A stretch of 64,000 bases of DNA from an uncultured Alphaproteobacteria bacterium (GCA_902628645.1 CACONS010000006.1:1731-65730); one strand, 5' to 3'; positions 33,499 to 63,222 are shown, numbered from the stretch's first letter. Notes: generated by a model from the letters alone, not told the origin. Translations and numbers: made by a program.

Positions 33499-34077
33499 AT
33501 GTATAATTATTACATGTCTAAAGATGAAGTAAAATTCACTGAAATGAAATATGGTGATAAAGAAGATTACGATCTTTTAGCAAATTTTGAAGACAAATAT
33601 ATCGAGGGAACAGCTGATAGAATTGTTAGAGTGCTTCAAGGTTTAGACAAATCAATGGGTGGATATAAGGTTTCAAGATTAGAACATTCTCTTCAAACAG
33701 CGTCACGAGCTCTAAGGGAGCAGGCTTCTGAAGAGATGGTAGTTGCCGCACTATTACATGATATTGGTGATGAAATAGCTCCATTAAATCATTCCGAACT
33801 AGCTGCAGCTGTCTTAAAACCATTTGTTTCAGAAAAAACTAGATGGATAGTAGAGCAACATGGTTTATTTCAGGCATATTATTATAACCATCACTATGGC
33901 AAAGAAAGAAATCTTCGTGACAAATTTATAGGGCATGAATTTTTTAATGATACAATAAATTTTTGTGAAAGATGGGATCAATCTTCATTTGACCCAAATT
34001 ATGATACTGTGCCTTTAAAAGAATTTGTTCCTATGGTTCAAAGAATATTTAATAGAACTCCATATAGAAATTTGTAA
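33499..34077 (+). CDS. HD-domain protein with PhnZ/TmpB-type (mixed-valent diiron oxygenase) ligand set
   Basis: RLEHSLQTA...AALLHDIGD...NHSELAA...EQHG...ERWDQ gives the H, HD, H, H, D pattern and matches remembered PhnZ (QLEHSLQCA...AALLHDLGH...QHEKVG...EGHV...AWDE). The start may be the Met at 33514. Confidence 0.6.
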   Translation: MYNYYMSKDEVKFTEMKYGDKEDYDLLANFEDKYIEGTADRIVRVLQGLDKSMGGYKVSRLEHSLQTASRALREQASEEMVVAALLHDIGDEIAPLNHSELAAAVLKPFVSEKTRWIVEQHGLFQAYYYNHHYGKERNLRDKFIGHEFFNDTINFCERWDQSSFDPNYDTVPLKEFVPMVQRIFNRTPYRNL

Positions 34078-34545
34078 TTACTTCTTCAGCTTTTGGATAA
34101 GGGTAAGTTCTCCTGGATCAAAGTTTTTTTTATTTTCTTGAATAAATTTATCTATATCTTGTTGCTTTTCTAATTCTAATTCAGAAACTTTTCTAACATT
34201 TAAATCAACATACAAAGAGCAAACCTCTGTTGTTGCTGCTCTATAACCTTCAAGCTTATGTGTCATTTCTAATTTATAAATTAATCTTTTTTTATCCCTA
34301 TCAAGAAATAACAAATTAATATCTACTTCATCACCCTCTTTAACTTCTTTGTCATAAGTAGTGTGTGATTCTACAGCAAAAGTAGTTTTTTTCTCTGTTT
34401 TAGCTGAATTCTCTCCCATATTAAATTTTTGTAAAAGAACTTCCCACCCAGCATCGAAAAGATGAATATAAAATGCCAAATTCATATGACCGTTATAATC
34501 AGTCCACTCATTTTTAACTCTTCCTGAATTTAAATATATCTTCAT
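34078..34545 (-). CDS. 4HBT/hotdog-fold acyl-CoA thioesterase (candidate betainyl-CoA thioesterase, CdhB-like)
   Basis: 155 aa hotdog-fold pattern (DYNGHMN...). Divergently paired with the BKACE and carnitine dehydrogenase genes. Confidence 0.6.
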   Translation of the reverse strand: MKIYLNSGRVKNEWTDYNGHMNLAFYIHLFDAGWEVLLQKFNMGENSAKTEKKTTFAVESHTTYDKEVKEGDEVDINLLFLDRDKKRLIYKLEMTHKLEGYRAATTEVCSLYVDLNVRKVSELELEKQQDIDKFIQENKKNFDPGELTLIQKLKK

Positions 34546-34587
34546 TGTTTCTCTTTATTAATTCAAAAAATATAGTAGTTTAAAACT

Positions 34588-35478
34588 ATGAATAATGAAG
34601 TAATAATTTCATGTGCGGTAACTGGATCTGGAGATACAGCAGGTAAACATCCTGAATTACCCATAACACCAAAACAAATTGCTGATGCTTCAATTGAAGC
34701 CGCTAAAGCAGGTGCTGCAATAGCTCATGTACATGTTAGGGAACCTGATGGCAAACCTTCTAGAAATTTAAATTATTATAAAGAAGTAGCAGACAGAATT
34801 CGTTCATCTGAAACTGATGTTGTTTTAAATTTTACAACAGGCATGGGTGGTGATTTTGAAGTAGGAACAGGTAAAGATCCTTTAAATCCAGTGGGAGCAA
34901 ATACAGATATGATCGACGCATTAAGCAGATTAGAACATGTTGAAGAATTATTACCTGAAATTTGTACGTTAGATTGCGGATCACTTAATTTTGGTGACTC
35001 AAACATGACATTTATTCATACACCGATACAACTAAGAACTGCTGCAAAAAAAATGCAGGAACTTGGAGTGAAACCAGAAATGGAAGCTTTTGAAATGGGT
35101 CATTTATGGTTTGCTAACCAACTTTATAAAGAAGGCTTAATTGATGGCCCTCCTTTTTATCAAATATGCCTTGGTATTCCCTGGGGATCACCAGCAACAA
35201 CCAGCGCAATGAAAGCAATGGCTGAAATGGTGCCTTCTGAGGGTATTTGGTCTGGATTTGGAATAGGAAGATCTCAAATGCCAATGGCTGCACAAGCAGT
35301 TATTTTGGGAGGAAATGTTCGTGTAGGACTGGAAGATAATCTTTATTTAAAGAGAGGTGTTTTTGCATCAAATGCACAGTTAGTAGAAAAGGCAAGATGC
35401 ATTGTTGAGGATATGGGGGCATCTATTTTGTCTCCACAGCAGACAAGAGAGAAATTAAAACTAAAAAAACATTTTTAA
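34588..35478 (+). CDS. beta-keto acid cleavage enzyme (BKACE/DUF849), candidate 3-dehydrocarnitine cleavage enzyme
   Basis: [23 protein letters not shown]...[15 protein letters not shown] is typical of the Kce/BKACE family. Sits immediately upstream of carnitine dehydrogenase. Confidence 0.8.
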
Positions 35479-35479: not shown

Positions 35480-36400
35480 TTGAAAAATATTGCTGTTATT
35501 GGAACTGGTGTAATTGGTACTGGCTGGATACTTAGATTTCTCGCAAATGATATAAAAGTCAAAGCATTTGATAAAAATTCACAACAAATAAATTTTCTAA
35601 AAGAAGAAATAATAAGAACAAAGTTAATTATAAAAAAGTTATATAATACAAAAATAAATATTAAAAATTTGGAAATCGTAGAAAATATTGAGGAAGCAGT
35701 TAAAAATGCAGATTTAATACAGGAAAATGTACCTGAAAGATTAACTTTAAAAAAAGATGTTATAAAAAATATAAGCAAACATTCACCCTCAAACTCAATA
35801 ATTGCTTCAAGTTCATCTGGTTTACTTCCATCTGATTTACAGTTTAAATGTGTCAATCCAAAAAGATTAATAATAGCTCATCCTTTTAACCCTGTATATA
35901 TTCTCCCTTTGGTTGAAATTGTAAAAGGTAAAAAAACTACAAATTTATATCTTAATAAGGCAAAAAAATTTTATCAAAATATTAAAATGAAAACATTATT
36001 AGTAGAAAAAGAATTACCAGGCTTTTTATCTGATAGATTACAAGAAGCTTTGTGGAGAGAAGGATTACATATTGTAAATGATGGATTTGCTTCAACAAAA
36101 GATTTAGATGATGCGATCACTTATGGACCAGGTATGAGGTGGGCTCTAATGGGAACTTTTCTTACATTTCATCTAGCTGGGGGAGAAATGGGCATGAAAC
36201 ACATGTTAGATCAATTTGGACCAGCATTGAAACTTCCATGGACTAAACTCAAATCTCCAAAGTTAACAAAAAAACTTAAAGAAAAAATTATTAAAGGAAC
36301 AAAAAAACAATCAAATAATCATTCTATTAAAAATTTAAGTAACATAAGAGATAATTTCTTAATAGATTTGCTAGAATTAAAGAAAAAATATAAATTATAA
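35480..36400 (+). CDS. lcdH: L-carnitine 3-dehydrogenase (3-hydroxyacyl-CoA dehydrogenase fold)
   Basis: TTG start. GTGVIGTGW Rossmann motif, and HPFNPVYILPLVEIV...PGFLSDRLQEALWREGLHIVNDG...MRWALMGTFLTFHLAGGEMGMKHMLDQFGPALKLPWTKL, closely matching remembered Pseudomonas/Xanthomonas carnitine dehydrogenases. Confidence 0.85.
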   Translation: MKNIAVIGTGVIGTGWILRFLANDIKVKAFDKNSQQINFLKEEIIRTKLIIKKLYNTKINIKNLEIVENIEEAVKNADLIQENVPERLTLKKDVIKNISKHSPSNSIIASSSSGLLPSDLQFKCVNPKRLIIAHPFNPVYILPLVEIVKGKKTTNLYLNKAKKFYQNIKMKTLLVEKELPGFLSDRLQEALWREGLHIVNDGFASTKDLDDAITYGPGMRWALMGTFLTFHLAGGEMGMKHMLDQFGPALKLPWTKLKSPKLTKKLKEKIIKGTKKQSNNHSIKNLSNIRDNFLIDLLELKKKYKL

Positions 36401-36402: not shown

Positions 36403-37410
36403 ATGACAATAGTATCAAAATATGTAGCTCTAAAGAATTATATACCAACTGGTTTGCCCAAAAAGGATGATTTTGAAATTAAATCTAAAACCTTAGAATT
36501 AAATGATACTAATAATATTCATGTTCTTAATTCATGGATATCTGTTGATCCGTATATGAGAGCAAGAATGACAGAACGTAAAAACTATAAACCACCCTTT
36601 TTACTAGGTGAGGAAATGGAAGGTTATGCCATTGGTTCAATCCAAAAATCAAAAGATTCACAATTTAAAGAAGGAGATGTTGTATTCAGTAATTTTGGAA
36701 TGAGAGATCACTTCACTTGTAAAGGCAGCGATTTAAAAAAAATCAAAAATTCTGACCTTCCATTACAAACTTATCTAGGCCCATTAGGAATGACTGGACA
36801 AACTGCATATATTGGTCTTTTTAGTCATGGAAAAATACAAAAGGGACAAAGTATTCTTGTATCTTCAGCAGGTGGAAGTGTTGGATCAACAGTTTGTCAA
36901 ATTGCTAAAAATTTAGGATGTAAAGTTTATGCTAGTACTGGATCAGATGAAAAAGTTAATTGGTTAAAAAATGAATTAAATGTTGATGCAGCGTTTAATT
37001 ATAAAAAAATTGACAATCTTGTTCTTCACTTAAAAGAAATTTGCCCTGAAGGTTTTGACTTATACTTTGATAATGTTGGAGGTGATTTTTTAGAGTCTGC
37101 AATTTTTCGAATGAAAAATTTTGGAAGAATTATTATTTGTGGAAGAATATCTCAAATGAATTCAACTTCCACTCCTAGTGGACTAAAAAATATGGCTCAT
37201 GTATTAGTAAAAAGATTAACAATAAAAGGTTTTTTAATTTTTGATCATGAGAATGATAATGAACCATTTGAAACTGATATGCGTAATTGGCTTTTAGATG
37301 GAAAAATAAAATTTAAAGAAACAATTTATGAAAAAATAGAAAATGCTCCAAAAGCATTTATAGATTTACTTAATGGTAAAAATTTAGGTAAAATGTTAGT
37401 TAAAATCTAA
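36403..37410 (+). CDS. NADP-dependent medium-chain reductase (YncB/CurA/alkenal-reductase-like, zinc-independent MDR)
   Basis: 335 aa. SVDPYMRARM, the GLFSHGKIQKGQSILVSSAGGSVGSTVCQIAK nucleotide-binding stretch, and a C-terminal GKNLGKMLVKI. Confidence 0.8.
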   Translation: MTIVSKYVALKNYIPTGLPKKDDFEIKSKTLELNDTNNIHVLNSWISVDPYMRARMTERKNYKPPFLLGEEMEGYAIGSIQKSKDSQFKEGDVVFSNFGMRDHFTCKGSDLKKIKNSDLPLQTYLGPLGMTGQTAYIGLFSHGKIQKGQSILVSSAGGSVGSTVCQIAKNLGCKVYASTGSDEKVNWLKNELNVDAAFNYKKIDNLVLHLKEICPEGFDLYFDNVGGDFLESAIFRMKNFGRIIICGRISQMNSTSTPSGLKNMAHVLVKRLTIKGFLIFDHENDNEPFETDMRNWLLDGKIKFKETIYEKIENAPKAFIDLLNGKNLGKMLVKI

Positions 37411-38850
37411 TTAAATTGTAACGTAGGGAGAGGTGCCACGATATTTAATATCTAAACGTAACTCCTTGTCTATTGGAGGAAACGCTCTTTGTTGACATTC
37501 AGTTCTAGGACAAATTCGACATGAAACACCAATTGGCATTTGAAGTTTCTTATTATCCAAATCTATACCTTCAGAATAAACTAAATCTTTTGCATATTGC
37601 ATATCACATCCGAGACCTATGGAAACGAAACTCTTAGGCATACCGTGTTTTTCAACTCCTTTTTCAAATGCTCTAGCTATACAAAAATAAACTTTTCCAT
37701 CTGGCATTTTTGAGATTTGAGGATGAATTTTTCCAGGGTTTAAAAAAGAAGTATAAACATTCCATCTAGGACATGATCCACCATGTCTAGGAATATGAAT
37801 GCCAGATAATGAAAATCTTTTTGAAACATTGCCAGCAATATCAGTTTTTAAAAAATGAAATGGAACACCTTCATTGCCAGGTCTTTGAAGATTTGTTAAT
37901 CGATGAGTTACTTGTTCGAAGCTACATGCATAATGATGCATTAAAATTTCAACATCGTATTTATGCTGTTTAGCACTTTTTAAAAAATCATCATATGGCA
38001 TCATAAATGCAGCAGCATAATAATTAATTAATGATAATTTAAGGAGAGGTACAACTTCTTCAGATTCAATGCTATTATTTTGAATTACCTTTTCTATTAC
38101 ATCATTAGCTTCAAGATAAGCTACTTGCGAAGCTAAATGAAAATTTCTCGAAGTATATGTTAACATTTCTGAAAGATAAAAAATTTTTGATTTTTCATCA
38201 AATCTTTTGACAATTTTTTCATCTTCACTAACGGTTACAATTTTGACCTTAATTTTATGTTTTGTCTCAAGAAATTTTGTTAATTTAGAACCAGATCCTA
38301 TATTTGGTCCATTTTCTAATCCAATTTCATCTCTTAATTTTTCAGAACTCAATTCAAGCTCGTGAAAGTAATTTTTATTTTCCTGAAGTATATCTGATAC
38401 TATTTCTACTGGAAGTCTAGTTGGTTTACTTATATCACCTGAGGTAATATCCATTGTTTCTAAACGATTTTGCATATCTTCTTTAAAACTTTTAAAACTA
38501 TCGTTAATGGCTAATAAAGCTTTTGCAATGTTTGGGTTAGAACCAATAAAATTACTTGTATCGTGATTTGTAATTTTTAAATCATCAAAAATCTCATTAC
38601 TTAAAACATCCATTACATCTGATAGGAGTCTTTTATTAGATTCTGCTGAGAAATCTTTTATGGATAAATCTAGTTCATCAGCAGCTTTTATTAACAGTGA
38701 AACAGGTATTTTTCTTTTTCCACTCTCTATTAAGTTAAGATAACTAGGTGATATTCCAATTGATTTAGATAATTTAGCTTGTGAAAAACCCTTATTAATC
38801 CTTTGTTTTTTTAGTCTTGGCCCTAAATTTATTTCTGTATTAGTATGCAT
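37411..38850 (-). CDS. XRE-HTH + ImmA/IrrE-like + DUF2083 regulator (short-chain fatty acyl-CoA regulator, ScfR/RamB/PccR family)
   Basis: N-terminal LKKQRINKGFSQAKLSKSIGISPSYLNLIESGKR (HTH_3). About 470 aa architecture with a C-terminal Cys-rich segment (CPRWNV...CRICPRTEC). Confidence 0.75.
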   Translation of the reverse strand: MHTNTEINLGPRLKKQRINKGFSQAKLSKSIGISPSYLNLIESGKRKIPVSLLIKAADELDLSIKDFSAESNKRLLSDVMDVLSNEIFDDLKITNHDTSNFIGSNPNIAKALLAINDSFKSFKEDMQNRLETMDITSGDISKPTRLPVEIVSDILQENKNYFHELELSSEKLRDEIGLENGPNIGSGSKLTKFLETKHKIKVKIVTVSEDEKIVKRFDEKSKIFYLSEMLTYTSRNFHLASQVAYLEANDVIEKVIQNNSIESEEVVPLLKLSLINYYAAAFMMPYDDFLKSAKQHKYDVEILMHHYACSFEQVTHRLTNLQRPGNEGVPFHFLKTDIAGNVSKRFSLSGIHIPRHGGSCPRWNVYTSFLNPGKIHPQISKMPDGKVYFCIARAFEKGVEKHGMPKSFVSIGLGCDMQYAKDLVYSEGIDLDNKKLQMPIGVSCRICPRTECQQRAFPPIDKELRLDIKYRGTSPYVTI

Positions 38851-39139: not shown

Positions 39140-39245
39140 CTCCAATTTTATTTAAGGCCTACTTCCCTCCTTAAATTTAAATATTTCCTACCTTCCTATA
39201 AGATAAAAATAAAATCTTAGGTTTTAACCTAAGATTTTTCTTATT
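39140..39245 (+). ncRNA. candidate sRNA or structured 3' UTR: C/U-rich anti-SD hairpin plus terminator
   Basis: 8-bp stem 39150-39157/39169-39176 with the loop CCTACTTCCCT, a second CU-rich stretch TTCCTACCTTCCT, then a 13-bp terminator hairpin and U-rich tail. Confidence 0.25.
39211..39239. terminator. bidirectional rho-independent terminator (small ORF/sRNA on the plus strand, betA-like operon on the minus strand)
   Basis: AAAATCTTAGGTT-TT-AACCTAAGATTTT is a perfect 13-bp inverted repeat with T-runs on both strands. Confidence 0.8.
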
Positions 39246-39248: not shown

Positions 39249-40841
39249 TTATTTAAGTAAAAGATCAGCAGCTCTTTCAGCCATCATAACAACATTAGCA
39301 TTAAGATTTGCACTCACAATATCAGGCATTATAGATGCATCAATTACTCTTAGATTCTGAATACCGTGAACCTTGGTATCTTGATCTACTACAGCATCCT
39401 TATCAAATCCCATTTTGTTTGAACATGATGGATGATAAGCAGACTCTGCAGTATTTCGTATAATTTCATCTAACTCTTCTTGAGTGGATATGTTTTTTCC
39501 TGGCCTTAATTCATAATCTACATATTCAGATAATGATTTTTGAGAGCAAATATTTTGAATAATTTTTACACTTTCACGCATTTGGTCTAAATCATCTTCG
39601 TGTTTCAAATAATTAAATTTAATTTCTGGATGTTCTATAAAATCTTTAGATGATATTTTGACATAACCTCTACTTTTGGGTCTATTAGGACAGGCATGAA
39701 ATTGAAAAGCATCAAACTTAGGATTTTCTAATCCATGATTAATTACAAGAGAAGGAAAAAAATGAAATTGAAGATTTGGATGTATATACTTATTATTTGA
39801 TTTTACAAAACCACCAAATTCTAAATGAGAATGAGAAAGCTTTCCTTTTTTAAATAAAAACCATTTAGCCCCTTCAGCGACTTGAGATATTAAATTAGTA
39901 GATAGATTGTAAAGTGTTTCTTTTTGTTTAGATTTATACTGTATATAAATTTCTAAATGATCCTGGAGATTTTTTCCGACTCCGCTTAAATTATGGATTA
40001 TCTCTATTCCTAAATCTTTTAAGTGGTCTCCATCACCAATACCTGAAAGTTGTAAAATTTTAGGCGAGTTAATAGACCCAGCACATAAAATTATTTCTTT
40101 ATTGCAAAAATATTTTTCATTTTTGTTATTTCGAATAATTTCTATTCCAATAGCTGTTTTATTTTTAAACAATATTTTCTTTACATAAGTATTTTTAATT
40201 ATTTTTAGATTTTTTCTTTTCTTAATTGGGTCTAGATATGCCTTAGCTACACTTTGCCTAACTCCTCCATCAATTGATACATCAAAAGTTCCAAAACCCT
40301 CATTATCATTACTATTAGAGTCATTGAATGATTTAAACCCTGCTTCTCTGGAAGCTTTTGAAACTGCATCAAATAACGGGAATTTCTTATCAATTATTGA
40401 TTTGTTAATCTTTAATGGACCGTCTGTCCCTCTAAAACTGTTTTTACCAGACCATGTTTCAGATTTTTTAAAGAAAGGGAGTACTTTGTCATAACTCCAT
40501 TTATCTAAACCATATGAAGCCCATCTATTAAAGTCTTCTTTGTGACCTCTAGCAAAAACCATTCCATTATGTGAAGAACATCCACCAATCATTTTACCTC
40601 TGGGGCAATACAATCTTCTGTTATTCAGATAAGGTTCAGGCTCAGAATAATACTTCCAATTATACTTTTCATCATGCATTACATACAAAAGTGCACTTGG
40701 CATATCGACTTTCCATGTATTATTTGATGGTCCTGCTTCAAATACACTAACTGTGTTTTTAGAGTGTGATGATAATCTATTGGCTAAAACACATCCAGCT
40801 GATCCTGCTCCAATTATTATATAATCAGCTTGGTTATTCAC
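39249..40841 (-). CDS. GMC-family flavoprotein, choline dehydrogenase (BetA)-like
   Basis: DYIIIGAGSAGCVLANRL, YNWKYYSEPEPYLNNRRLYCPRGK, NLQDHLEIYIQY, PNLQFHFFP, RPKSRGYVKI and AYHPSCSNKMG are colinear with remembered E. coli BetA. Confidence 0.8.
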   Translation of the reverse strand: MNNQADYIIIGAGSAGCVLANRLSSHSKNTVSVFEAGPSNNTWKVDMPSALLYVMHDEKYNWKYYSEPEPYLNNRRLYCPRGKMIGGCSSHNGMVFARGHKEDFNRWASYGLDKWSYDKVLPFFKKSETWSGKNSFRGTDGPLKINKSIIDKKFPLFDAVSKASREAGFKSFNDSNSNDNEGFGTFDVSIDGGVRQSVAKAYLDPIKKRKNLKIIKNTYVKKILFKNKTAIGIEIIRNNKNEKYFCNKEIILCAGSINSPKILQLSGIGDGDHLKDLGIEIIHNLSGVGKNLQDHLEIYIQYKSKQKETLYNLSTNLISQVAEGAKWFLFKKGKLSHSHLEFGGFVKSNNKYIHPNLQFHFFPSLVINHGLENPKFDAFQFHACPNRPKSRGYVKISSKDFIEHPEIKFNYLKHEDDLDQMRESVKIIQNICSQKSLSEYVDYELRPGKNISTQEELDEIIRNTAESAYHPSCSNKMGFDKDAVVDQDTKVHGIQNLRVIDASIMPDIVSANLNANVVMMAERAADLLLK

Positions 40842-41890: not shown

Positions 41891-41909
41891 TATTTTAAAT
41901 ATAGATAGG

Positions 41910-45389: not shown

Positions 45390-45413
45390 TAAAATTGTTC
45401 GAAATATTGGATG

Positions 45414-45425
45414 AATTCTAGAAAT
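45414..45425. promoter_or_regulatory. near-palindrome AATTCTAGAAAT in the divergent ABC promoter region
   Basis: Read directly. Pairs with the perfect palindrome at 45567-45580. Confidence 0.3.
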
Positions 45426-45580: not shown

Positions 45581-45582
45581 AT

Positions 45583-45607: not shown

Positions 45608-45625
45608 AATTATAAGGGAGGACAA

Positions 45626-52508: not shown

Positions 52509-52511
52509 GTT

Positions 52512-52847: not shown

Positions 52848-52848
52848 A

Positions 52849-53970: not shown

Positions 53971-53971
53971 A

Positions 53972-55210: not shown

Positions 55211-55220
55211 TTACTTCTTC

Positions 55221-56693
55221 TTAAAATGGGTTTGGTTGAGATGGTTTGGTAGCTAACCATGTAGATTTAGTCTGCATGTAACTTTGCATTCCCTCCCATC
55301 CATTTTCACGACCGTATCCTGATTGCTTGAAACCTCCAACTGGAGATTGAGTAGAAGCATTAAAATAATTATTTATATAAACAGTTCCAGCCTCTATCTT
55401 ATCTGCTAAACGTATAGCTTTATTGGTATCCTTAGTCCAAATACCTGCTGCAAGTCCATAAATAGTATTGTTTGCAATTTTAATTACTTCATCTTCATCA
55501 TCCCAAGATTGTATTGAGGCGACAGGTCCAAATACTTCATTTTGAGCTAAATCATCTTCATTTGGAACATTATCAAAAATAGTTGGTCCAATATAGTACC
55601 CTTCAGATTTTTGTTCTTTTCTTCCATCAATTAATAATTTTAAACCTCTTTTTTCAGCCGCTTCTATCTTAGATAAAATAAAATCATATTGCTCTTTATT
55701 TGCTATAGGTCCTATTTGTGTTGCTGTATCATTTGGGTTACCAACTTTAGCTTTTTTAACAACTTCTAATAAATTTTGAGTAAATTTATCTTTTATATCT
55801 TTATGCACTAATATTCTTGATCCTGAAATACAGCTATGACCTGAAACTGGAAAGATTCCTGAAACAACTCCATTAACTGATAAAGTTAAATCAGCATCTT
55901 TAAATATAATTTGTGGTGATTTTCCTCCTAGCTCCATAATAATAGGTTTAACGTTTTTGGATGCACTTAAACTAGCTGCACGCCCCCCTTTTGTTCCGCC
56001 TGTAAAACTTATCATTCTAACATCTTGGTGTTCAATAAGAGGTGCACCAGTGGTAGGGCCAAAACCAGTAACAACATTAATCAAGCCTTCAGGAAGATCG
56101 GCTTCTTCTAAAATTTTCATTAACTCTAATGTAGAGCACGATGCTCTTTCTGAAGGTTTAATTACAACAGTATTGCCTGCTGCAATTGCTGGTGCCAATT
56201 TCCAGATTAATGTTCCAATTGGTGAGTTCCAAGGTAGAATTAGTGCAACAACTCCAAATGGTTCCCATTTTAAATAATTATGCATATTTGGAACCTCTGA
56301 AGGTATCAATCTACCTTCATACTTGTCACACATACCTGCATAATAATAAAAACTCTCAGTCTGCCAGCTAGTTAAAGAAGGAGTGATATTTTTTGGAAGT
56401 TTGCCGTTGTCTTTAGTTTCTATTTTTCCAATGCGTTCAGCATTTTTAGCAATAATATCTCCAATTCTAGTTAATGTTCTTCCTCTTTCTGCTGGATACA
56501 TTTTAGCATAAGGACCATCATAATAAGCACGTTTAGCAGATGATACTGCAAGATTAATATCTTTTTGATTACAGTCAGGGACCTTTGCCCATACTTTACC
56601 TATAGATGGATCCTCACTTTCAAAATATTTTTCAGATGAAGGGTCATGCCATTTATTTCCCGCATAAAATTTGTAGGTTTGAATTTCAGACAT
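55221..56693 (-). CDS. NAD(P)+-dependent aldehyde dehydrogenase (BetB-like size and class)
   Basis: ELGGKSP and catalytic Cys in GHSCISGSR; 490 aa. Confidence 0.88.
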   Translation of the reverse strand: MSEIQTYKFYAGNKWHDPSSEKYFESEDPSIGKVWAKVPDCNQKDINLAVSSAKRAYYDGPYAKMYPAERGRTLTRIGDIIAKNAERIGKIETKDNGKLPKNITPSLTSWQTESFYYYAGMCDKYEGRLIPSEVPNMHNYLKWEPFGVVALILPWNSPIGTLIWKLAPAIAAGNTVVIKPSERASCSTLELMKILEEADLPEGLINVVTGFGPTTGAPLIEHQDVRMISFTGGTKGGRAASLSASKNVKPIIMELGGKSPQIIFKDADLTLSVNGVVSGIFPVSGHSCISGSRILVHKDIKDKFTQNLLEVVKKAKVGNPNDTATQIGPIANKEQYDFILSKIEAAEKRGLKLLIDGRKEQKSEGYYIGPTIFDNVPNEDDLAQNEVFGPVASIQSWDDEDEVIKIANNTIYGLAAGIWTKDTNKAIRLADKIEAGTVYINNYFNASTQSPVGGFKQSGYGRENGWEGMQSYMQTKSTWLATKPSQPNPF

Positions 56694-56738
56694 AATTTAT
56701 TTAAACTTAAATATTTTCATTGGTCAACTTATTTGTGA

Positions 56739-58379
56739 TTAATTAATTTTTAATATCATATCTGATGCTTTTTCTGCTAACATAATTACAGATGCATTTA
56801 TATTTCCACTTATCATATCTGGGAAAGAAGATGCATCTACTACTCTCAGATTGTCTATTCCTCTAACTTTAAGCTGATTATCAAGTACAGCCATTTTGTT
56901 ATTACTGGAACCCATTGCGCAAGTAGATGCAGGATGATGGCCTGTTTGTACATGATTTCGAACTGACTCTTTTAAATCCTGATCACTTTTTATTTTTTTT
57001 CCTGGAAGTAATTCTTCCGAAACAATTTTTGCTAAACTGGGTTTTGACAATACTTCTCTTGTATGCTTCATCCCCTCTATCATATCTTCCATATCAGATG
57101 GATCGATGAACCAATTTGGATTTATATTAAGTTCATCATTAGGATTTGAGCTTTTAAGTTTTACACTTCCTGTGCTCTTTGGTCTTAATAAATTAATTTG
57201 AAAGTGTAATCCTGGAAAAGCTTTTTTACCTCTAGAAAAAAATAATGAACCAAAATTTAATAAATTATCTAAACTCATAGACCAGTTATCTTTTTCTTCT
57301 TTAAAACACATAGGTGTCATGAACACTTGTATTTCAGGCATATCTTTTTCTCTTATTGCATGAAATAGATTTGTTGACCAAAAAGGAGCTGCAGCTAATC
57401 CTTGTTTAAATAAAATATATTTTAATCCTACAATAATAGCTCTATCGATCCTTTGATATTTAGAGAAACTTAAATTGTTGTTTTGAAAAGCCCAATTCAT
57501 TGGCATAACAGGATGATCGTGAAGGTTTTCACCTACTCCAGGTAAGTTAATTAATAATTCTATATTTTTTTCTTTTAAATGTTCTTCTGGACCAATTCCT
57601 GACAACATTAAACATTTGGGACTACCGAATGCTCCTAAAGATAATATTACCTCTGATGATGCATAAACTTCACCATTTGATAAAAGTAATCCTTTAGCTT
57701 TATTTTTCTCAATTAAAATTTTTATTACAGATGTATTTTTATAAATTGTTAAGTTGCTAGGTTTAAATTTCAAATAAGCTTCTGCAGATGATTGTCTTTT
57801 TCCCTTCCATACTTTAACATCATATCGGCCTACTCCATTTAGATTGCCGTTGTAAAAATCATTATTAATTTCTGCCCCAGCTTCAACACATGCATCAATA
57901 AATGCTTTATCGATAGAATTGTAATTACCAGCTGGTGTAAGTTTTAAAGGACCTGAATGTGAGTGATATTCATTTTTTTCTCTATGAAAAGCTGAGGCAG
58001 ATTTTTTGAAATATGGCAGTACTTCATTAAAAGACCAACCCTCTAAGCCCTTTTGTCTCCATCTGTTAAAATCACCTGATGCACCTCTCATGTAAATCAT
58101 ACCGTTTAAAAGAGAAGATCCTCCTAGTCCTTTACCTCTAGGATACAAAATTTTTCTATTATCTAAAGAAGGTTGAGGTATTGACTCAAAACCCCAATCA
58201 AATTTAGGGTTTCCAAAAATGTATCCGTTACCACCGGGCATTTGAGTGAATAAACTTTTTCCTGACCCCCCTGCTTCTATTAGTAATACCTTTATATCTT
58301 TATTTTCAGATAATCTTGAGGCTAATGTACAGCCAGCAGAACCTCCTCCTGCTATTATATAGTCAAATGTTTTTTTCAT
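56739..58379 (-). CDS. GMC-family flavin oxidoreductase (alcohol/choline dehydrogenase-like, more divergent than the one at 39249)
   Basis: DYIIAGGGSAGCTLASRL, GKGLGGSSLLNG, NLHDHP, and GHHPASTCAMG motifs. Confidence 0.85.
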   Translation of the reverse strand: MKKTFDYIIAGGGSAGCTLASRLSENKDIKVLLIEAGGSGKSLFTQMPGGNGYIFGNPKFDWGFESIPQPSLDNRKILYPRGKGLGGSSLLNGMIYMRGASGDFNRWRQKGLEGWSFNEVLPYFKKSASAFHREKNEYHSHSGPLKLTPAGNYNSIDKAFIDACVEAGAEINNDFYNGNLNGVGRYDVKVWKGKRQSSAEAYLKFKPSNLTIYKNTSVIKILIEKNKAKGLLLSNGEVYASSEVILSLGAFGSPKCLMLSGIGPEEHLKEKNIELLINLPGVGENLHDHPVMPMNWAFQNNNLSFSKYQRIDRAIIVGLKYILFKQGLAAAPFWSTNLFHAIREKDMPEIQVFMTPMCFKEEKDNWSMSLDNLLNFGSLFFSRGKKAFPGLHFQINLLRPKSTGSVKLKSSNPNDELNINPNWFIDPSDMEDMIEGMKHTREVLSKPSLAKIVSEELLPGKKIKSDQDLKESVRNHVQTGHHPASTCAMGSSNNKMAVLDNQLKVRGIDNLRVVDASSFPDMISGNINASVIMLAEKASDMILKIN

Positions 58380-58409
58380 TTATTTAAATTAAAAAGAAAT
58401 AATTTTTTA

Positions 58410-59270
58410 TTAGTTATTTTTTCTTTCTCTATAAGCTATAAAAATTCCTGTACTAATTATTATTGTTCCTCCTAGATAAATACTTAAAGTTGGTACTTCT
58501 GCATAAATTAAATAACCCATTACTCCAACAAAAATAAAAGATGAGTATTCGAATGGAGAAGTAATTGCAACATCAGCATATTTAGCTGCCTGTGACATAA
58601 ACAAATGCCCAAGTGAGCCCATTATGCCTAAACTCATAGCAAAAATTAATTGTACCATACTAGGCATAATAAAATTTTCAGGGAAAAATATAATTGACGT
58701 AATTAATAATGCAAAAGAATAATAAAATACAATTGCAACACTAGAATCAGTACTCATTACAGATCTAGTTGATAAATAAACAGAAGCCATAAAAGCTGCA
58801 GATATTAAAGGATAGAGTGTTTCTAATTTGAACAAGTCAGTACCGGGCTTAACAATTATTAATACACCTATGAAACCAATTAATATTGCAGTGGTTCTAA
58901 ATATGCCAATTCTCTCTCCAAGTATTGGTACAGCAAGAAAGGCAGCAATGATTGGTGCAGAATGTGCTATAGCAATATTTTCTGAAAGCATTAAATGATT
59001 AATTCCATAAATATAGAATACAACACAAGCAGAAGCAGAAAGAGCTCGTATAGCATGCCCAAATGGTTTTTTAGTTTTTAATTTATCAAATCCAAAATAC
59101 ATTGCCATGAAAGTTGCAATGATACTTCCACTGAGTGCTCGAAAAAATATTGATTCCCATACAGGAAAATGAAAACTTAAATATTTATAAGTGATATCAT
59201 TTATACTAAGACAAAACATGGACAGCAACATGAAAGAAATTCCCAAGAGACTATTATTTTTCGATTTCAT
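58410..59270 (-). CDS. EamA/DMT-family permease
   Basis: 10 predicted TM helices in two EamA repeats. First gene of the EamA-GMC-ALDH minus-strand array. Confidence 0.8.
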   Translation of the reverse strand: MKSKNNSLLGISFMLLSMFCLSINDITYKYLSFHFPVWESIFFRALSGSIIATFMAMYFGFDKLKTKKPFGHAIRALSASACVVFYIYGINHLMLSENIAIAHSAPIIAAFLAVPILGERIGIFRTTAILIGFIGVLIIVKPGTDLFKLETLYPLISAAFMASVYLSTRSVMSTDSSVAIVFYYSFALLITSIIFFPENFIMPSMVQLIFAMSLGIMGSLGHLFMSQAAKYADVAITSPFEYSSFIFVGVMGYLIYAEVPTLSIYLGGTIIISTGIFIAYRERKNN

Positions 59271-59320: not shown

Positions 59321-60460
59321 ATGAATAACAAATATCATGTAAAAAAAATAGAAAAAAAGAATGATCATTTAAGTATTTTATGGAAAGATAATTTTGAAAG
59401 TAAATTTCATTTTATGTGGTTAAGAGATAATTGTCCAACAGCAATACATCCTACTGCAAATATGCGAGTCTTTAATATTTTAACTGTTAGTAAAAATATA
59501 TTTCCTAAAAATTATAAAATTGAAAAAAATAAACTCAATATTGATTGGAGTGAAGGTGATCATAGTAGCAAATTCAATTTAAAATGGTTAAGAGATCATT
59601 GTTATACTGAAATAAATAATCGAAAATATAAATCACCTTATGTTTTTTGGGATGGTAAATTAAAAAAAAATTTAAAGAAAATTATTGTTGATCATAATAG
59701 TGTAATAAAAAATGACAAACATTTAAGTAAATGGTTAAATCTACTTCATACTTATGGTTTTGCATTAATCAAAAATGCGCCAACTAGAAAAAAATCAGCA
59801 TTCAAAATATTAAATAGAATAAGCCATCATAGAGAAACATTTTTTGGTACACCATTTGAAGTAATTAATATTCCAAAACCAAATAATACAGCTTATACGG
59901 CAGATGCTCTGAGAAATCATACTGACTTACCTTATTTTGAATATGCACCTGGATATCAGTTTCTTCATTGTTTAGTAAATGATGCTTATGGCGGATTATC
60001 ATCTGTTGTAGATGGTTTTACAGTAGCAAATTATTTAAAAAAAAATGAAAAAGATGTTTTTAATATTTTAACTAAAACTCACGTTAAATTCAAAGATACT
60101 GATTATACTCAAAAAGCTATCAGAATTCTTCACTCACCAATTATAACACTTACAAAAGATAATGATTTCAATGATATTAGATTTAGTATGGCTGCAATGG
60201 GAGCAGTTGATGTTGATCCAAAAAAAATGAAAAAATTTTATGAAGCCTACCTATATTTTGCATCATTGCTTCAAAATAATAAATTTAAAATTGATTTTAG
60301 ATTAGAGGCAGGTGATATATTTTGTTTTAATAATAGAAGAGTATTACATGGGAGGACTGAATTTGATCCAAACTCTGGAAATAGACATCTTCAAGGATAT
60401 TATATTGAAAGAGATGAAATAATAGGAAGATTAAATTATTTTAATAATATTAAAGTTTAG
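59321..60460 (+). CDS. Fe(II)/2-oxoglutarate dioxygenase of the gamma-butyrobetaine hydroxylase / TMLH / TmpA family
   Basis: N-terminal DUF971-like WLRDNCP... domain, NNTAYTADALRNHTDLPYF...GYQFLHC (HxD), and VLHGRTEF (distal His). Colinear with remembered human BBOX1. Confidence 0.8.
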   Translation: MNNKYHVKKIEKKNDHLSILWKDNFESKFHFMWLRDNCPTAIHPTANMRVFNILTVSKNIFPKNYKIEKNKLNIDWSEGDHSSKFNLKWLRDHCYTEINNRKYKSPYVFWDGKLKKNLKKIIVDHNSVIKNDKHLSKWLNLLHTYGFALIKNAPTRKKSAFKILNRISHHRETFFGTPFEVINIPKPNNTAYTADALRNHTDLPYFEYAPGYQFLHCLVNDAYGGLSSVVDGFTVANYLKKNEKDVFNILTKTHVKFKDTDYTQKAIRILHSPIITLTKDNDFNDIRFSMAAMGAVDVDPKKMKKFYEAYLYFASLLQNNKFKIDFRLEAGDIFCFNNRRVLHGRTEFDPNSGNRHLQGYYIERDEIIGRLNYFNNIKV

Positions 60461-60461: not shown

Positions 60462-61892
60462 TCATTCCCATCCGCAGATAGTTTTAATTTCTAAATATTC
60501 TTCTAGACCCCAATCACCTCCCTCTCTTCCATTACCAGATTGTCTATAACCACCAAAGGGAGTTCCTGGATCAGCACTATTTCCATTTATATAAACACCT
60601 CCTGATCTAAATTTTCTTGCAACTCTTTTGGCTTTTTCTTTATCTTGAGTTTGAACATAGTTTCCTAGACCATAGGATGTATCGTTGACAATTGATATAG
60701 CTTCATCTTCATCTTCAAATGGAATTATAGATAATACTGGTCCAAAAATCTCTTCTTTTGCAATTCTCATATTATTAGTTACATCTGTGAAAATTGTTGG
60801 CTTAACAAAATAACCCTTTTCTAGACCATTTGGCTTTTCAGGACCTCCAGCCACGAGTGTAGCGCCCTCATTTATACCACTATTAATTAGATCAATAATT
60901 TTATCATATTGTGTTTTAGAAATAACTGGACCGATATGATTTCCATTCTTAGAAGCAATATCAACTTTAATTTTATTTGCTTCATCAGCCGCCTCCTCTA
61001 CTGCTCTTTTATAGATTGATTTTTCAACTAGCATTCTTGTTGGTGCATCACAGGATTGACCCGAATTACTCATAATATTCCTAACACCTTCTCTTACTGC
61101 TTCTGGATGTGAGTCACTAAAAACAATATTACCCCCCTTACCTCCTAATTCTAAACATACTCTTTTAATTGTATCTGCTGCGTTTTTAGAAATAAGTTTT
61201 CCTGCTCTTGTTGATCCAGTAAAAGATATCATATCAATATCTTTATGAGATGATAGATCTGTACCTACACCCTCTCCATCTCCATTCACTAAATTAAAAA
61301 CACCAGGAGGGAAACCTGCTTCATGAATTATTTCCGCAAAAATGATCCCTGACATGGGTGCAATTTCTGAAGGTTTTAATATCATAGTGCAGCCAGTGGC
61401 TAAAGCAGGTATTACTTTCAATGTGATTTGATTGATAGGCCAATTCCACGGTGTAATAAGACCGCATACTCCAATCGGTTCATAAACAATATAATTATTG
61501 GAATTTTTATTAAATCTTTTTTCAAATTCAAAATTTTTTAATCTCAAAATGAAATCATTAATATGATCTGCTCCTGAAGAAGTTTGCGCTGATGAAGACC
61601 AATCTAATGGCGCTCCCATTTCCTCAGACATTATTTGTGTTATTTCATCCCATCTACTTTTATAAATTTTAAGTAATTTTTCTAATAAACTAATCTTTTC
61701 TCTTTTATCTACCTGACTCCACGTAATGAATGCTTTTTTTGCTACATTGACTGCTAGATCTACATCTTCCTTAGATCCTAAAGAAATAAAAGCGTATGGT
61801 TGTTCATTAGAGGGATTAATAACCTCAAAATCATTCTTTATAATTGGATTAATCCAAGAACCATTTATATAAAATTTACGTTTATCAATCAT
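60462..61892 (-). CDS. NAD(P)+-dependent aldehyde dehydrogenase
   Basis: ELGGKGG and catalytic Cys in GQSCDAPTR; 476 aa. Convergent with the dioxygenase (1-nt gap). Confidence 0.88.
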   Translation of the reverse strand: MIDKRKFYINGSWINPIIKNDFEVINPSNEQPYAFISLGSKEDVDLAVNVAKKAFITWSQVDKREKISLLEKLLKIYKSRWDEITQIMSEEMGAPLDWSSSAQTSSGADHINDFILRLKNFEFEKRFNKNSNNYIVYEPIGVCGLITPWNWPINQITLKVIPALATGCTMILKPSEIAPMSGIIFAEIIHEAGFPPGVFNLVNGDGEGVGTDLSSHKDIDMISFTGSTRAGKLISKNAADTIKRVCLELGGKGGNIVFSDSHPEAVREGVRNIMSNSGQSCDAPTRMLVEKSIYKRAVEEAADEANKIKVDIASKNGNHIGPVISKTQYDKIIDLINSGINEGATLVAGGPEKPNGLEKGYFVKPTIFTDVTNNMRIAKEEIFGPVLSIIPFEDEDEAISIVNDTSYGLGNYVQTQDKEKAKRVARKFRSGGVYINGNSADPGTPFGGYRQSGNGREGGDWGLEEYLEIKTICGWE

Positions 61893-61971
61893 TATTGAAA
61901 ATATATTTAAATAAAATATACATTTATTTTTATCTATATTAGAATAAAATAATACACAATAAGAGGTAAAA

Positions 61972-63222
61972 TTGACAATAGAAAATATTAAACTTGATAT
62001 AGACTACGTAAGATCGCAATTCCCAGCATTTAAAGATCCTCTTTCAAAAGAATGGTCTTTTTTTGAAAATGCTGGAGGGAGCTATGTTCCACAAAATGTA
62101 ATTGATAAATTATCTGAATTTATGACATCGACAAAGGTTCAACCTTATGCAGAATATCCTATGTCTAAAATAGCTGGTGAAAACATGGATAAAGCTACTG
62201 AATTGTTTGCTCAAATGATAAATGCAAAAAAGAATGAAATTTTAATCGGCGGATCAACTTCTATAAATTTATATGTTTTATCTAATGCTTTAAGGAAGTA
62301 CTTAAATCCAGGAGATGAGATCATTGTAACTAATCAAGATCATGAAGCAAATATTAGTCCTTGGAGAAGATTAAAGGAAATTGATGCAAAAATTATTGAA
62401 TGGAAATTTGATTTAAATAGTCATGAACTTAAAATATCTGATTTAGAAAGTTTAATTACAAAAAGAACAAAAATATTAGCTGTAACACACTGTTCAAATA
62501 TTATTGGATCAATAAATAATTTAAAAAAAATTTCCGAAATAGCTCATAAAAATAATATTATAGTTATTGGAGATGGCGTTTCCTATGCTCCACATGGTTT
62601 CCCTGATGTTAAAAAACTTGATGTAGATTTTTATACATTTAGTCTCTATAAAACATACGGACCTCATCTTGCACTTTTGTATGGTAAAGAAGAAATTTTA
62701 AAAGATCTGCCTAATCAAAATCATGAGTTTCTAGAAAATAACTATCCTTACACTATAAATCCAGGAGGTCCTAATCATGAGGAATTAGTGTCATTGATTG
62801 GTATACATGAATATTTTGAAAATTTGTATAAACATCATTTTAATAATACTAATTTGTCAACAAGGGAAAAAATGGAAAAAATTAATGAAATTATCTCATT
62901 ACATGAAGAGGAAGTTGGTAATCCTATATTAGAATATATATCAAATAGAGATGATTTAAAATTAATTGGCAAAAATAAAATCTTTGATAAGAACAGGGCG
63001 CCAACAATTTCTTTCATTTCTAACAAATTAACTTCTAAAAAGATAAGTGAGATATTAGTTAAGAATAAAATTGCAACAAGAAATGACAATTTTTATGCTT
63101 GGAGATGTCTTGATGCTCTAAAAATAGATACCTCGGATGGAGTTGTAAGATTAAGCTTAACACACTATAACTCTAAAGATGATGTAAATAAGTTACTATT
63201 TGCTTTAAATAAGATTAATTAA
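61972..63222 (+). CDS. class V aminotransferase-fold PLP enzyme (cysteine desulfurase/SufS-like subfamily), function unknown
   Basis: TTG start. HEANISPW and a PLP-lysine context FYTFSLYKTYGPH. Confidence 0.75.
   Translation: MTIENIKLDIDYVRSQFPAFKDPLSKEWSFFENAGGSYVPQNVIDKLSEFMTSTKVQPYAEYPMSKIAGENMDKATELFAQMINAKKNEILIGGSTSINLYVLSNALRKYLNPGDEIIVTNQDHEANISPWRRLKEIDAKIIEWKFDLNSHELKISDLESLITKRTKILAVTHCSNIIGSINNLKKISEIAHKNNIIVIGDGVSYAPHGFPDVKKLDVDFYTFSLYKTYGPHLALLYGKEEILKDLPNQNHEFLENNYPYTINPGGPNHEELVSLIGIHEYFENLYKHHFNNTNLSTREKMEKINEIISLHEEEVGNPILEYISNRDDLKLIGKNKIFDKNRAPTISFISNKLTSKKISEILVKNKIATRNDNFYAWRCLDALKIDTSDGVVRLSLTHYNSKDDVNKLLFALNKIN

Follow-up and report, generated by a model that had tools for sequence, protein, structure and literature searches.

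Gene content of the island

The sequence analyzed here (the window) is a stretch of 64,000 nucleotides, C6:1731-65730, from the assembly of an uncultured alphaproteobacterium (G000). The subject is an island of about 30 kb within it (33499-63222), in which a backbone of genes related to quaternary-amine catabolism (33499-41623 and 58410-63222) is split by a lineage-specific cassette of 16,786 bp (41624..58409), located at the place held in relatives by the genes of the betaine-type importer ProXWV. The assembly comprises 983 kb in 47 contigs and is 64% complete; therefore, "only copy" means the only copy seen. The GC content was approximately 29%, with a flat profile over the region. Proteins were typed by open reading frame (ORF) listing followed by Pfam and NCBIfam profile scans, with the curated or equivalog cut-offs of NCBIfam, and order-wide orthologue counts cover 187 species genomes. 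Compared genomes and loci are designated G### and L###, respectively. We assign the host to order HIMB59, family GCA-002718135, genus AG-337-I02, based on the placement of its relatives in Table S1 of PMC10734472. A reading made previously from the sequence alone had implied a Pelagibacterales host, which was not borne out by this taxonomy.

The backbone begins at its left border with a gene for an HD-domain protein (33499..34077, plus strand; Pfam HD) of PhnZ/TmpB-like fold. Its scores against the NCBIfam PhnZ and TmpB models were 41 to 42 bits (cut-offs of 214 and 300, respectively), and sequence similarity to either protein was limited to ∼40 residues. However, H63, H87, D88, H98, H121, and D160 were invariant in 10 homologues, giving the H, HD, H, H, D six-ligand pattern, and the AlphaFold model (pLDDT of 86) was matched best by Foldseek to PhnZ (TM of 0.65 to 0.69), followed by TmpB (∼0.6), both well separated from other HD proteins, with later matches at E values of >0.05. 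Ligand pattern and modeled fold are those of the HD diiron oxygenases (PhnZ/TmpB/MIOX kind), making the protein a putative oxygenase. The second and third ligand positions are spaced 11 residues apart, compared with 22 in PhnZ. The HD gene adjoined the thioesterase gene in the loci of family GCA-002718135 that were examined, with the exception of one short contig.

This neighbor encodes a hotdog (4HBT) thioesterase (34078..34545, minus strand; Pfam 4HBT_2), a candidate betainyl-CoA thioesterase; on PRK07531, the model of the fused carnitine 3-dehydrogenase, it aligned to the thioesterase portion at the C terminus (345-481). It is followed on the plus strand by a BKACE enzyme (34588..35478; Pfam BKACE, 323 bits), present as a single copy in the assembly and scoring under all NCBIfam equivalog cut-offs, and by a 3HCDH-type, L-carnitine dehydrogenase-like 3-hydroxyacyl dehydrogenase (CDH; 35480..36400). 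The best family for CDH was L-carnitine dehydrogenase, at scores under the cut-off (342 versus 414 bits for PRK07066 and 332 versus 592 bits for PRK07531). The three genes are adjacent, with spacers of 42 bp and 1 bp, and their order was kept in the loci of the family that were examined. Orthologues of CDH were found in 134/187 genomes of the order.

Next to CDH lies an MDR-family reductase gene (36403..37410, plus strand; Pfam ADH_N_2 and ADH_zinc_N). The product resembles NADPH enone/alkenal reductases of the curcumin-reductase/LTB4-dehydrogenase type, under the cut-off, and its gene was located 3' of CDH in most backbone versions. The remaining genes of the left half are on the minus strand. 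They encode a ScfR/RamB-type regulator with HTH, M78, and ScfRs domains (37411..38850; Pfam ScfRs, 209 bits; NCBIfam RamB, 418 bits versus a cut-off of 700), which held the same position in most of the family's backbones examined; a choline-dehydrogenase-subfamily flavoenzyme, GMC1 (39249..40841), which passed the subfamily cut-off (PRK02106, 696 versus 605 bits) but failed that of the BetA equivalog (625 versus 732 bits); and an SDR oxidoreductase (40841..41623; Pfam adh_short_C2). The SDR gene was always directly downstream of importer genes, namely, beside ProV in the compact islands described below and beside the Opp-type ATPase in the window. In one congener (G021; L007:9273-10694), a 1.7-kb insertion was observed between the MDR reductase and regulator genes, consisting of two small ORFs (211 and 156 amino acids), one with a signal-like N terminus.

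The right half starts with an EamA/DMT permease gene (58410..59270, minus strand; two Pfam EamA domains), which is divergent from the following dioxygenase gene and adjoined it in most of the family's backbones examined. The dioxygenase (59321..60460, plus strand; Pfam TauD and GBBH-like_N) is an Fe/2-oxoglutarate enzyme of the gamma-butyrobetaine hydroxylase (GBBH) family, with orthologues in 130/187 genomes of the order. It scored under the cut-offs for gamma-butyrobetaine dioxygenase (TIGR02409, 320 versus 415 bits), TmpA (282 versus 400), and trimethyllysine dioxygenase (221 versus 268). Its best relative in the PDB was human BBOX1 (191 bits), with TmpA at 166 bits. The HxD...H iron triad, the NN.AYT motif, and an aromatic cage with Y-to-F and W-to-F changes are retained, and the Zn Cys triad is lacking. 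In human BBOX1 numbering, the changes are Y177 to F and W181 to F, with Y194 and N191 kept.

Convergent with the dioxygenase gene is that of an aldehyde dehydrogenase, ALDH2 (60462..61892, minus strand; Pfam Aldedh; BADH, 421 versus 669 bits). The aldehyde dehydrogenase at this position differed by island version: an ALDH2 orthologue (78 to 88% identical) was present in some, including G067, G124, and the window, while G001, G006, and G019 carried a non-orthologous enzyme (38% identical) and a class II aldolase (Aldolase_II). G124 had, in addition, a TauD-type dioxygenase sharing 76% identity with the second of the two dioxygenases in the Arctic SAR11 island discussed below. The last gene of the island encodes a class V, cysteine-desulfurase-like pyridoxal phosphate (PLP) enzyme (61972..63222, plus strand; Pfam Aminotran_5; TIGR01976, 319 versus 352 bits), next to polysaccharide genes. 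The PLP enzyme was at the island end only within the genus, and its identity to congeners dropped to 73 to 80% before the alignment was lost.

The cassette starts with an Opp/Dpp/Nik-type ABC importer on the minus strand, with a fused double ATPase (41910-43523), permease C (43510-44430), and permease B (44427-45389). These proteins matched Pfam ABC_tran (twice) with oligo_HPY and BPD_transp_1, as well as NCBIfam models of the nickel/oligopeptide type, and were 96 to 99% identical in congeners. A family 5 solute-binding protein with a twin-arginine (RRQF) signal (45530..47254, plus strand; Pfam SBP_bac_5, 229 bits) was 98 to 100% identical in six congeners, and a stem-loop (47266-47311) follows its stop codon. 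The next gene, also on the plus strand, encodes a homocysteine S-methyltransferase domain protein (47355..48284; Pfam S-methyl_trans, PF02574, 132 bits). It scored far under the cut-offs for BHMT (65 versus 338 bits) and MmuM (86 versus 215 bits) and carries the Cys motifs SACVSP and GGCCE, that is, the expected zinc-binding cysteines. Among solved structures, both this methyltransferase and the binding protein had remote relatives only. Downstream is a GcvT-fold aminomethyltransferase paralogue (48323..49552, plus strand; Pfam GCV_T and GCV_T_C) that is neither DmdA nor GcvT: the models for the C-terminal part of trimethylamine N-oxide (TMAO) demethylase, for DmdA, and for GcvT all scored under the cut-off, and the protein was 26% identical to P. 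ubique DmdA and 76 to 79% identical in congeners.

A six-gene operon follows on the plus strand (49601..55210), with neighboring genes overlapping by up to 47 bases or separated by at most 3. Its first product is a flavin mononucleotide (FMN)-dependent 2-hydroxyacid dehydrogenase/oxidase (49601-50764), for which the nearest PDB entries were L-lactate oxidase/mandelate dehydrogenase. For the second, a thiamine diphosphate (ThDP) enzyme (50766-52508), they were 2-hydroxyacyl-CoA lyase (HACL)/oxalyl-CoA decarboxylase (194 bits), and the homologues among the matches listed were ocean sequences of 97 to 99% identity. The third is a transthyretin-like protein (52512-52847) that ends in ...YSIWWSK and scored 69 bits against a hydroxyisourate hydrolase cut-off of 87. 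Hydroxyisourate hydrolases carry a C-terminal YRGS signature; with its different end and sub-cut-off score, the protein is therefore probably not a member of that group. The operon continues with a divergent DmdA paralogue (52819-53970), an OsmC-like protein (53924-54418), and a crotonase (54419-55210). An adjacent OsmC-crotonase pair (54 to 59% identical) was also present elsewhere, in three cassette-free genomes examined (G019:C1:62901-64138, G025:C1:149077-150351, and G026:C1:292002-293263). The host assembly showed only the cassette copy of this pair, and the methyltransferase had the same either/or pattern.

The cassette closes with an alcohol-to-acid pair on the minus strand, ALDH1 (55221-56693; Pfam Aldedh) downstream of GMC2 (56739-58379; Pfam GMC_oxred). 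All scores of the pair were under the cut-off, with 465 versus 669 bits for ALDH1 against BADH and, for GMC2, 515 versus 605 bits against the choline dehydrogenase subfamily and 450 versus 732 bits against BetA. In most relatives with the expanded island, two genes were present between GMC2 and EamA (L010:8306-10446 in G018, equivalent to window position 58379/58410), encoding a 272-amino-acid protein without a Pfam family and a 441-amino-acid MmgE/PrpD-family protein. They were missing in the window, in G119, and, judged by distance class, in G118.

All of the families named in the sequence-only reading were found by the Pfam and NCBIfam scans where it had placed them. However, its list left out eight genes, those for the MDR reductase, SDR, FMN dehydrogenase, ThDP enzyme, transthyretin-like protein, OsmC, crotonase, and PLP enzyme, so that the unity of the block had partly been built by omission. 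These eight are from families without a stated link to methylated compounds. Across the island, a curated NCBIfam cut-off was passed by only three proteins, the DmdA-like protein (PRK12486, 528 versus 410 bits), GMC1, and the crotonase.

The island accounts for 3% of the assembly and contains 2/3 of its GMC genes, 2/4 ALDH genes, and 2/7 GcvT-fold genes. The sole BKACE, carnitine dehydrogenase-type, GBBH, PhnZ-like HD, and S-methyl_trans genes also all lie within these 30 kb. In a rough, post hoc count, 11 of 19 such genes were in the island, against ∼0.6 expected. The conserved gene order in relatives, down to 55 to 80% protein identity, is stronger evidence than this enrichment.

Scans for promoters and terminators gave counts at or under the shuffled expectation. 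The sole usable element was a 12-bp hairpin just downstream of GMC1 (39211..39238), terminator-like on both strands, which likely is the terminator closing the minus-strand unit. A weak sRNA-like Rfam match covered it (33.9 bits versus a gathering score of 64). With Rfam at a permissive threshold over 30 to 64 kb, no riboswitch (SAM, glycine, or other) was detected, and the two sub-threshold matches were both on hairpins.

To the left of the island (27770-33485) are genes for a polyamine-type ABC importer (PotA-like, with a PotF-like binding protein), an N-carbamoylputrescine amidase-like protein, and an agmatine deiminase-like protein; the agmatine deiminase and HD genes diverge, with only 13 bp between their starts. 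In compact genomes (L022:12126-19154 in G001; also G067, L112, L114, and L115), the HD gene instead ended a same-strand run of genes for an acyl-CoA dehydrogenase, an NDP-forming acyl-CoA synthetase, a crotonase, a class III aminotransferase, an MFS transporter, and a GNAT protein. Of these, the first three are similar to the Sinorhizobium bco genes, which belong to the CoA-dependent gamma-butyrobetaine route, whereas the window has the agmatine deiminase and polyamine genes at this place. At the right border (63215-64000), a polysaccharide biosynthesis gene begins and the congener alignment is lost. The hypervariable cell-surface island known for HIMB59 probably has its edge here.

Conserved order and exchange of modules

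The whole block, from the polyamine genes to the PLP enzyme gene, was collinear in seven congeners (G003, G007, G009, G017, G018, G021, and G119), and the backbone was collinear across at least five genera of family GCA-002718135. The relatives retrieved with the HD protein were GORG single-cell genomes and MarineAlpha5 metagenome-assembled genomes (MAGs). A compact form of the island was observed in G001, G006, G019, and G067, from the same GTDB genus, and in G041, G123, G124, and G131, from other genera of the family. Its order was HD, thioesterase, BKACE, CDH, MDR, ScfR, (aldo-keto reductase), GMC1, SDR, ProV, ProW, ProX, EamA, GBBH, ALDH, and then a class II aldolase, a class V PLP enzyme, or a TauD-type dioxygenase. 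Compact and expanded versions both occur within genus AG-337-I02.

In G001, G006, G067, G124, and G131/L114, the genes between SDR and EamA were those of ProXWV, with a ProX of the OpuAC family. ProXWV was not found within the window; a ProX homologue (73% identical) was present on contig C16 of the same genome. Both G006 and L110 have the agmatine deiminase (aguA) flank of the window and yet the compact form. Hence, the lineage of the window has 16,786 bp exactly where others have proXWV. The layout of importer genes, SDR, and GMC1 is retained, with the Opp-type permease and ATPase genes occupying the place of proW and proV.

The distribution of the two forms was followed with the cassette ThDP gene, which was present in 68/104 species of one genus and in 0/82 elsewhere in the order, and with the distance from CDH to GBBH, measurable in 81 genomes with both genes on one contig. 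Three distance classes were obtained: 50 to 62 bp in 35 genomes, all in the other family of the order; 8.7 to 10.6 kb in 12 genomes; and 22.9 to 26.7 kb in 34 genomes, all with the cassette ThDP gene. Within the last class, the absence of the two extra genes between GMC2 and EamA accounts for distances of 22.9 kb versus 24.6 to 26.7 kb. In the genus of the HIMB59 family, CDH was detected in 38/71 species and GBBH in 35/71, a presence/absence polymorphism. The genomes G025 and G026 were considered as a guide to this second family as a whole and set aside; both are without CDH, whereas half of their genus has it.

The compact form is likelier to be ancestral, since it occurs in several genera and since the SAR11 island likewise has SDR directly after ProXWV. 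By this parsimony argument, the cassette would be a derived replacement of proXWV. An origin as a mobile element was considered as well and rejected: no integrase, transposase, or tRNA border turned up in the general family scans, and GC was flat.

Tiled nucleotide comparison with six congeners, for which the baseline was mostly 88 to 98% identity, revealed a mosaic with three troughs. From ScfR to GMC1 (37.4-41.2 kb), identity fell to 73 to 86% and the spacer could not be aligned; GMC1 shared only 73 to 75% identity with its counterpart in six congeners, for which identity was otherwise 92 to 100%. From the methyltransferase to the FMN dehydrogenase (47.3-50.7 kb), identity was 67 to 86%, and the third trough ran from the PLP enzyme onward (62000-63300). 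The second trough is abrupt: the methyltransferase gene, 100 bp downstream of the gene of a binding protein with 98 to 100% protein identity, was only 62 to 68% identical, and its allele classes across the genus were 96, 78, 72, and 63 to 69%. G119 has the alleles of the window across the whole block, with 95 to 99% protein identity for most genes. The troughs fit allele replacement by homologous recombination.

These data support the view of the sequence-only reading that the block is an island rather than a random collection, in that the backbone is collinear across several genera and homologous to a published SAR11 island. They also support its description as modular, given that transporter, right-end, and middle modules were swapped between lineages at fixed borders.

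Relation to known systems

An island of 17 to 20 genes was described for Arctic SAR11 Ia.1, present in 8/16 isolates (mBio 2025, PMC12421898). It contains ProXWV, SDR, CDH, BKACE, a class II aldolase, a thioesterase, two dioxygenases, a choline dehydrogenase, an ALDH, and a DMT permease, and its authors interpreted it as adapting the cells to take up and produce glycine betaine (PMC12421898). The window proteins were compared with translated uisw_090 gene fragments from Table S4 of PMC12421898, covering approximately the first 130 residues. Identities were 71% for GMC1 (against the CHDH fragment), 68% for BKACE, 61% for the thioesterase, 53% for the carnitine dehydrogenase, 52% for ALDH2, 47% for GBBH, and 40% for SDR. 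The concept of such an island is therefore already known.

All eight of choline dehydrogenase, SDR, CDH, BKACE, thioesterase, GBBH dioxygenase, ALDH, and DMT/EamA permease are co-located in both islands, the Arctic island has a DMT transporter at its end, and the relatives of the window further share ProXWV and the class II aldolase with the Arctic island. Both also show presence/absence polymorphism within a lineage, and the general scans of the window proteins gave no integrase or transposase family. On the other hand, the host order is HIMB59 rather than Pelagibacter, and the gene order differs. The window version has the HD oxygenase, MDR reductase, and ScfR regulator and is without the SMR, VOC, GPDP, and HADH genes of the Arctic island, in which no counterpart of the 16.8-kb cassette replacing ProXWV was seen. 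The relatives of the window are tropical/subtropical single-cell genomes, whereas the Arctic island is from polar isolates. The novel part is the cassette nested in the island, which took the place of the betaine importer; the backbone belongs to a type of island already described and now found in a second order of abundant marine bacteria.

Exchange of gene sets between fixed borders has a precedent within HIMB59, where flexible islands hold phosphate and phosphonate gene sets between conserved border genes (PMC10734472). As in those islands, of the same order and family, alternative sets lie between conserved borders, the versions track lineages, and no integrase or mobility genes are present, an absence that fits replacement by homologous recombination. 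Unlike them, the content here is osmolyte and C1 metabolism. The genomes with the expanded island were designated "genus 1, genomospecies A", described as the more widespread genomospecies, and the compact-form relative G006 falls in "genus 3" (PMC10734472). The two principal genome studies of these bacteria, on HIMB59 (PMC10734472) and on AEGEAN-169 (PMC10308909), are both silent on genes for carnitine, betaine, choline, and DMSP (dimethylsulfoniopropionate).

The left half of the backbone can be compared with established carnitine degradation. Bacterial routes from carnitine to glycine betaine include that of Pseudomonas aeruginosa cdhCAB and the carnitine/bco genes of Sinorhizobium meliloti. 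The window has the genes expected for such a route: a carnitine dehydrogenase, a BKACE enzyme for the acetyl-CoA-dependent cleavage, and a thioesterase to set glycine betaine free. In contrast to the fused carnitine 3-dehydrogenase model, dehydrogenase and thioesterase are separate genes, and in contrast to the Bco route, gamma-butyrobetaine would enter through an O2-dependent dioxygenase rather than in a CoA-dependent manner.

The DmdA paralogue of the cassette was described in the sequence-only reading as DmdA-like. It is a full-length GcvT-fold match that passes the DmdA cut-off, but as a paralogue it has diverged, with 48% identity to P. ubique DmdA (SAR11_0246, 3TFH), compared with 65% for a canonical copy on another contig (C1:68048-69160). 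An EamA-type permease gene follows the latter. The nearest full-length representative of the window paralogue among 1.84 billion was 51% identical, and it formed its own 50% cluster. By sequence, the window copy is a lineage-restricted branch of the DmdA family and not the host's orthologue of the characterized enzyme. No DmdB or DmdC gene adjoins it, and it sits among a 2-hydroxyacid oxidase and an HACL-like enzyme. The crotonase two genes downstream could act like AcuH/DmdD (PMC5395565). DmdA-like paralogues without an assigned substrate were already known in SAR11 (PMC3160333).

Predicted function and alternative readings

The reading that we consider probable, though well short of firm, is a two-layer catabolic island, with a conserved quaternary-amine backbone and a cassette, in place of ProXWV, for further methylated osmolytes. 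The substrates and reaction steps in the following scheme are predictions from homology and gene context. Gamma-butyrobetaine would be converted to L-carnitine by the Fe/2-oxoglutarate dioxygenase, and carnitine would be oxidized by the carnitine dehydrogenase-like enzyme. BKACE would cleave the CDH product with acetyl-CoA to betainyl-CoA and acetoacetate, and the hotdog thioesterase would free glycine betaine from betainyl-CoA. Choline-type alcohols would reach glycine betaine through GMC1 and an ALDH. The ScfR/RamB-type regulator, EamA permease, SDR, MDR reductase, and putative PhnZ/TmpB-fold HD oxygenase would be companions of this backbone. One lineage of the genus would have swapped ProXWV for the cassette, which most likely imports and demethylates one or more further methylated osmolytes. 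The methyltransferase may perform the first glycine betaine demethylation, with dimethylglycine and sarcosine then oxidized by the products of genes on contig C4.

For the carnitine arm, the CDH/BKACE/thioesterase trio supports the known route through betainyl-CoA to glycine betaine, a conversion we infer from family membership and adjacency. The dioxygenase points to a gamma-butyrobetaine hydroxylase because its orthologue (54 to 55% identical) is ∼53 bp from CDH, 50 to 62 bp downstream of it, in the 35 genomes of the shortest distance class. This pairing is good contextual evidence for gamma-butyrobetaine hydroxylation feeding CDH.

The same pairing bears on two further readings of the dioxygenase. 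The claim that the choline, carnitine, gamma-butyrobetaine, and trimethylaminoethylphosphonate (TMAEP) routes all end in glycine betaine is plausible for the gamma-butyrobetaine/carnitine and choline arms and was not supported for the TMAEP arm. As a whole, that four-route reading, in which the dioxygenase would be TmpA, the HD protein would be TmpB, and all products would feed betaine, methyl-tetrahydrofolate, or methionine, is improbable. In its favor are the six-ligand pattern (H...HD...H...H...D) and fold that the HD protein shares with TmpB (TmpA/TmpB, 6NPB and 6NPA) and PhnZ (PhnY*/PhnZ) and the 282 bits of the dioxygenase, of the same family as TmpA, on the TmpA model. In addition, an HD orthologue was found directly beside a GBBH-like gene in a genome of the HIMB59 family (G026, C1:308299-310009; L006, ∼8300-10000; 48% identical) and in a Pelagibacteraceae MAG (L117:1121-2867; 75% identical). 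However, the GBBH-like partner in these two loci is a different paralogue, 31 to 36% identical to the window dioxygenase, and no copy of this TmpA-like partner was seen in the host assembly, which is incomplete as stated above; since the usual partner of the HD protein is this other paralogue, the route is unsupported here. Furthermore, the dioxygenase orthologue pairs with CDH, the dioxygenase (59321) and HD (33499) genes are 25 kb apart at opposite island ends, unlike TmpA/TmpB, and the TmpA and TmpB cut-offs were missed widely (282 versus 400 and 41 versus 300 bits). No phosphonate transporter or phosphate-regulon gene was found in the stretch. The TmpA/TmpB-like HD and GBBH-like pair of G026 and L117 could be counted as phnZ in surveys.

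Trimethyllysine degradation at the right backbone end (hydroxylation, aldol cleavage, and aldehyde oxidation to gamma-butyrobetaine and on into the carnitine arm), by the dioxygenase, ALDH, and PLP enzyme or, in relatives, the class II aldolase or second TauD-type dioxygenase, is the least probable reading of all: the enzyme set matches eukaryotic carnitine biosynthesis, the trimethyllysine dioxygenase model reached 221 bits of the 268 needed, an ALDH, even if non-orthologous, is always beside the dioxygenase, and an aldolase (Aldolase_II) or second dioxygenase lies alongside in relatives, but the one dioxygenase of the window would have to perform both hydroxylations, the PLP enzyme is of the cysteine desulfurase type rather than the threonine aldolase/SHMT type, and the tight CDH pairing already explains the dioxygenase.

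Regarding the demethylation steps, a homocysteine methyl-transfer element had been proposed for the block, and the assembly's only homocysteine methyltransferase, the sole PF02574 match, does lie inside the island. Each genome of the genus that was listed has one PF02574 match, either of the cassette type or, elsewhere, of a type at 41 to 46% identity. Genes for oxidation of dimethylglycine and sarcosine were detected on contigs C4 and C20, encoding SoxA (1324 versus 1164 bits) and FAO_M dehydrogenases. By analogy with the SAR11 pathway (PMC3160333), the methyltransferase stands out as the leading candidate for the initial demethylation of glycine betaine, since it is the only PF02574 gene and the later-step genes are present.

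Several observations weigh against the two-layer reading. Nearly all island proteins score under the NCBIfam equivalog cut-offs, so that most of the names used here are sub-cut-off best matches. Asn292, which binds the carboxylate in human BBOX1, has no conserved counterpart in the window dioxygenase. The binding protein resembles nickel and peptide binders (NikA, AppA, and GsiB type), and at ≤106 bits only. The FMN dehydrogenase, ThDP enzyme, transthyretin-like protein, OsmC, and crotonase are without a stated link to methylated compounds, and the cassette has no CoA ligase or acyl-CoA dehydrogenase to feed the crotonase and HACL-like enzyme.

Several of these points fit the alternative that only the backbone is a functional unit and that the central 16.8 kb is a passenger with no relation to it, inserted at a site where a streamlined genome readily recombines. 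The contents of the cassette would then be a peptide/nickel importer, a lactate/2-hydroxyacid oxidase, an acetolactate synthase-like enzyme, a hydroxyisourate hydrolase-like protein, a peroxiredoxin, and a beta-oxidation crotonase, with the GcvT, DmdA, and methyltransferase paralogues acting on substrates unrelated to the island. The failure of all cassette proteins but the DmdA-like protein and crotonase to pass specific family cut-offs, the nickel and peptide binders as nearest structures of the binding protein, the lack of a regulator within the cassette, its absence from all compact islands and the Arctic SAR11 island, and the mosaic with troughs at 37.4-41.2 and 47.3-50.7 kb are all consistent with a passenger. 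Nevertheless, we consider it unlikely. The cassette replaces the betaine importer exactly, with the layout of importer genes, SDR, and GMC1 retained, and was inherited as one block in 34/34 measurable genomes. It brings three C1-transfer enzymes and a second choline dehydrogenase-like/ALDH pair, the same kinds of enzyme as in the backbone, and it holds the only homocysteine methyltransferase detected in the cell.

Undescribed chemistry, also raised in the sequence-only reading, is possible only for the cassette. A more specific suggestion, which we put forward tentatively and consider less likely than not, is that the cassette encodes an undescribed route for a methylated osmolyte other than glycine betaine, choline, carnitine, or DMSP, with a sulfonium or quaternary-ammonium 2-hydroxy acid or alcohol as the candidate. 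A family 5 binding protein of the peptide/opine type would have been recruited as the importer, ousting ProXWV; the divergent DmdA, the GcvT paralogue, and the hypervariable methyltransferase would strip methyl groups; and GMC2/ALDH1 together with the 2-hydroxyacid oxidase/HACL-like pair would process the carbon skeleton. If so, the allele divergence of methyltransferase and GcvT among near-identical genomes would reflect differing substrates per population.

For the two-layer island, some consequences follow for the cells that carry it. A family 5 binding protein took over the place of the betaine importer. Ocean gene surveys would score the window DmdA paralogue as dmdA, but it is probably not the host's DMSP demethylase. 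For the step that opens glycine betaine breakdown, the methyltransferase would be the sole candidate in these cells, as far as the 64% complete assembly extends. HIMB59/AEGEAN-169 bacteria count among the streamlined heterotrophs that abound in the open ocean, and the relatives with the expanded island fall in the genomospecies of family GCA-002718135 that is most widespread (PMC10734472). Descriptions of the quaternary-amine island had been limited to polar SAR11; it is now seen to be widespread in a second order as well, in tropical/subtropical populations, so that its interpretation as a cold adaptation is weakened.

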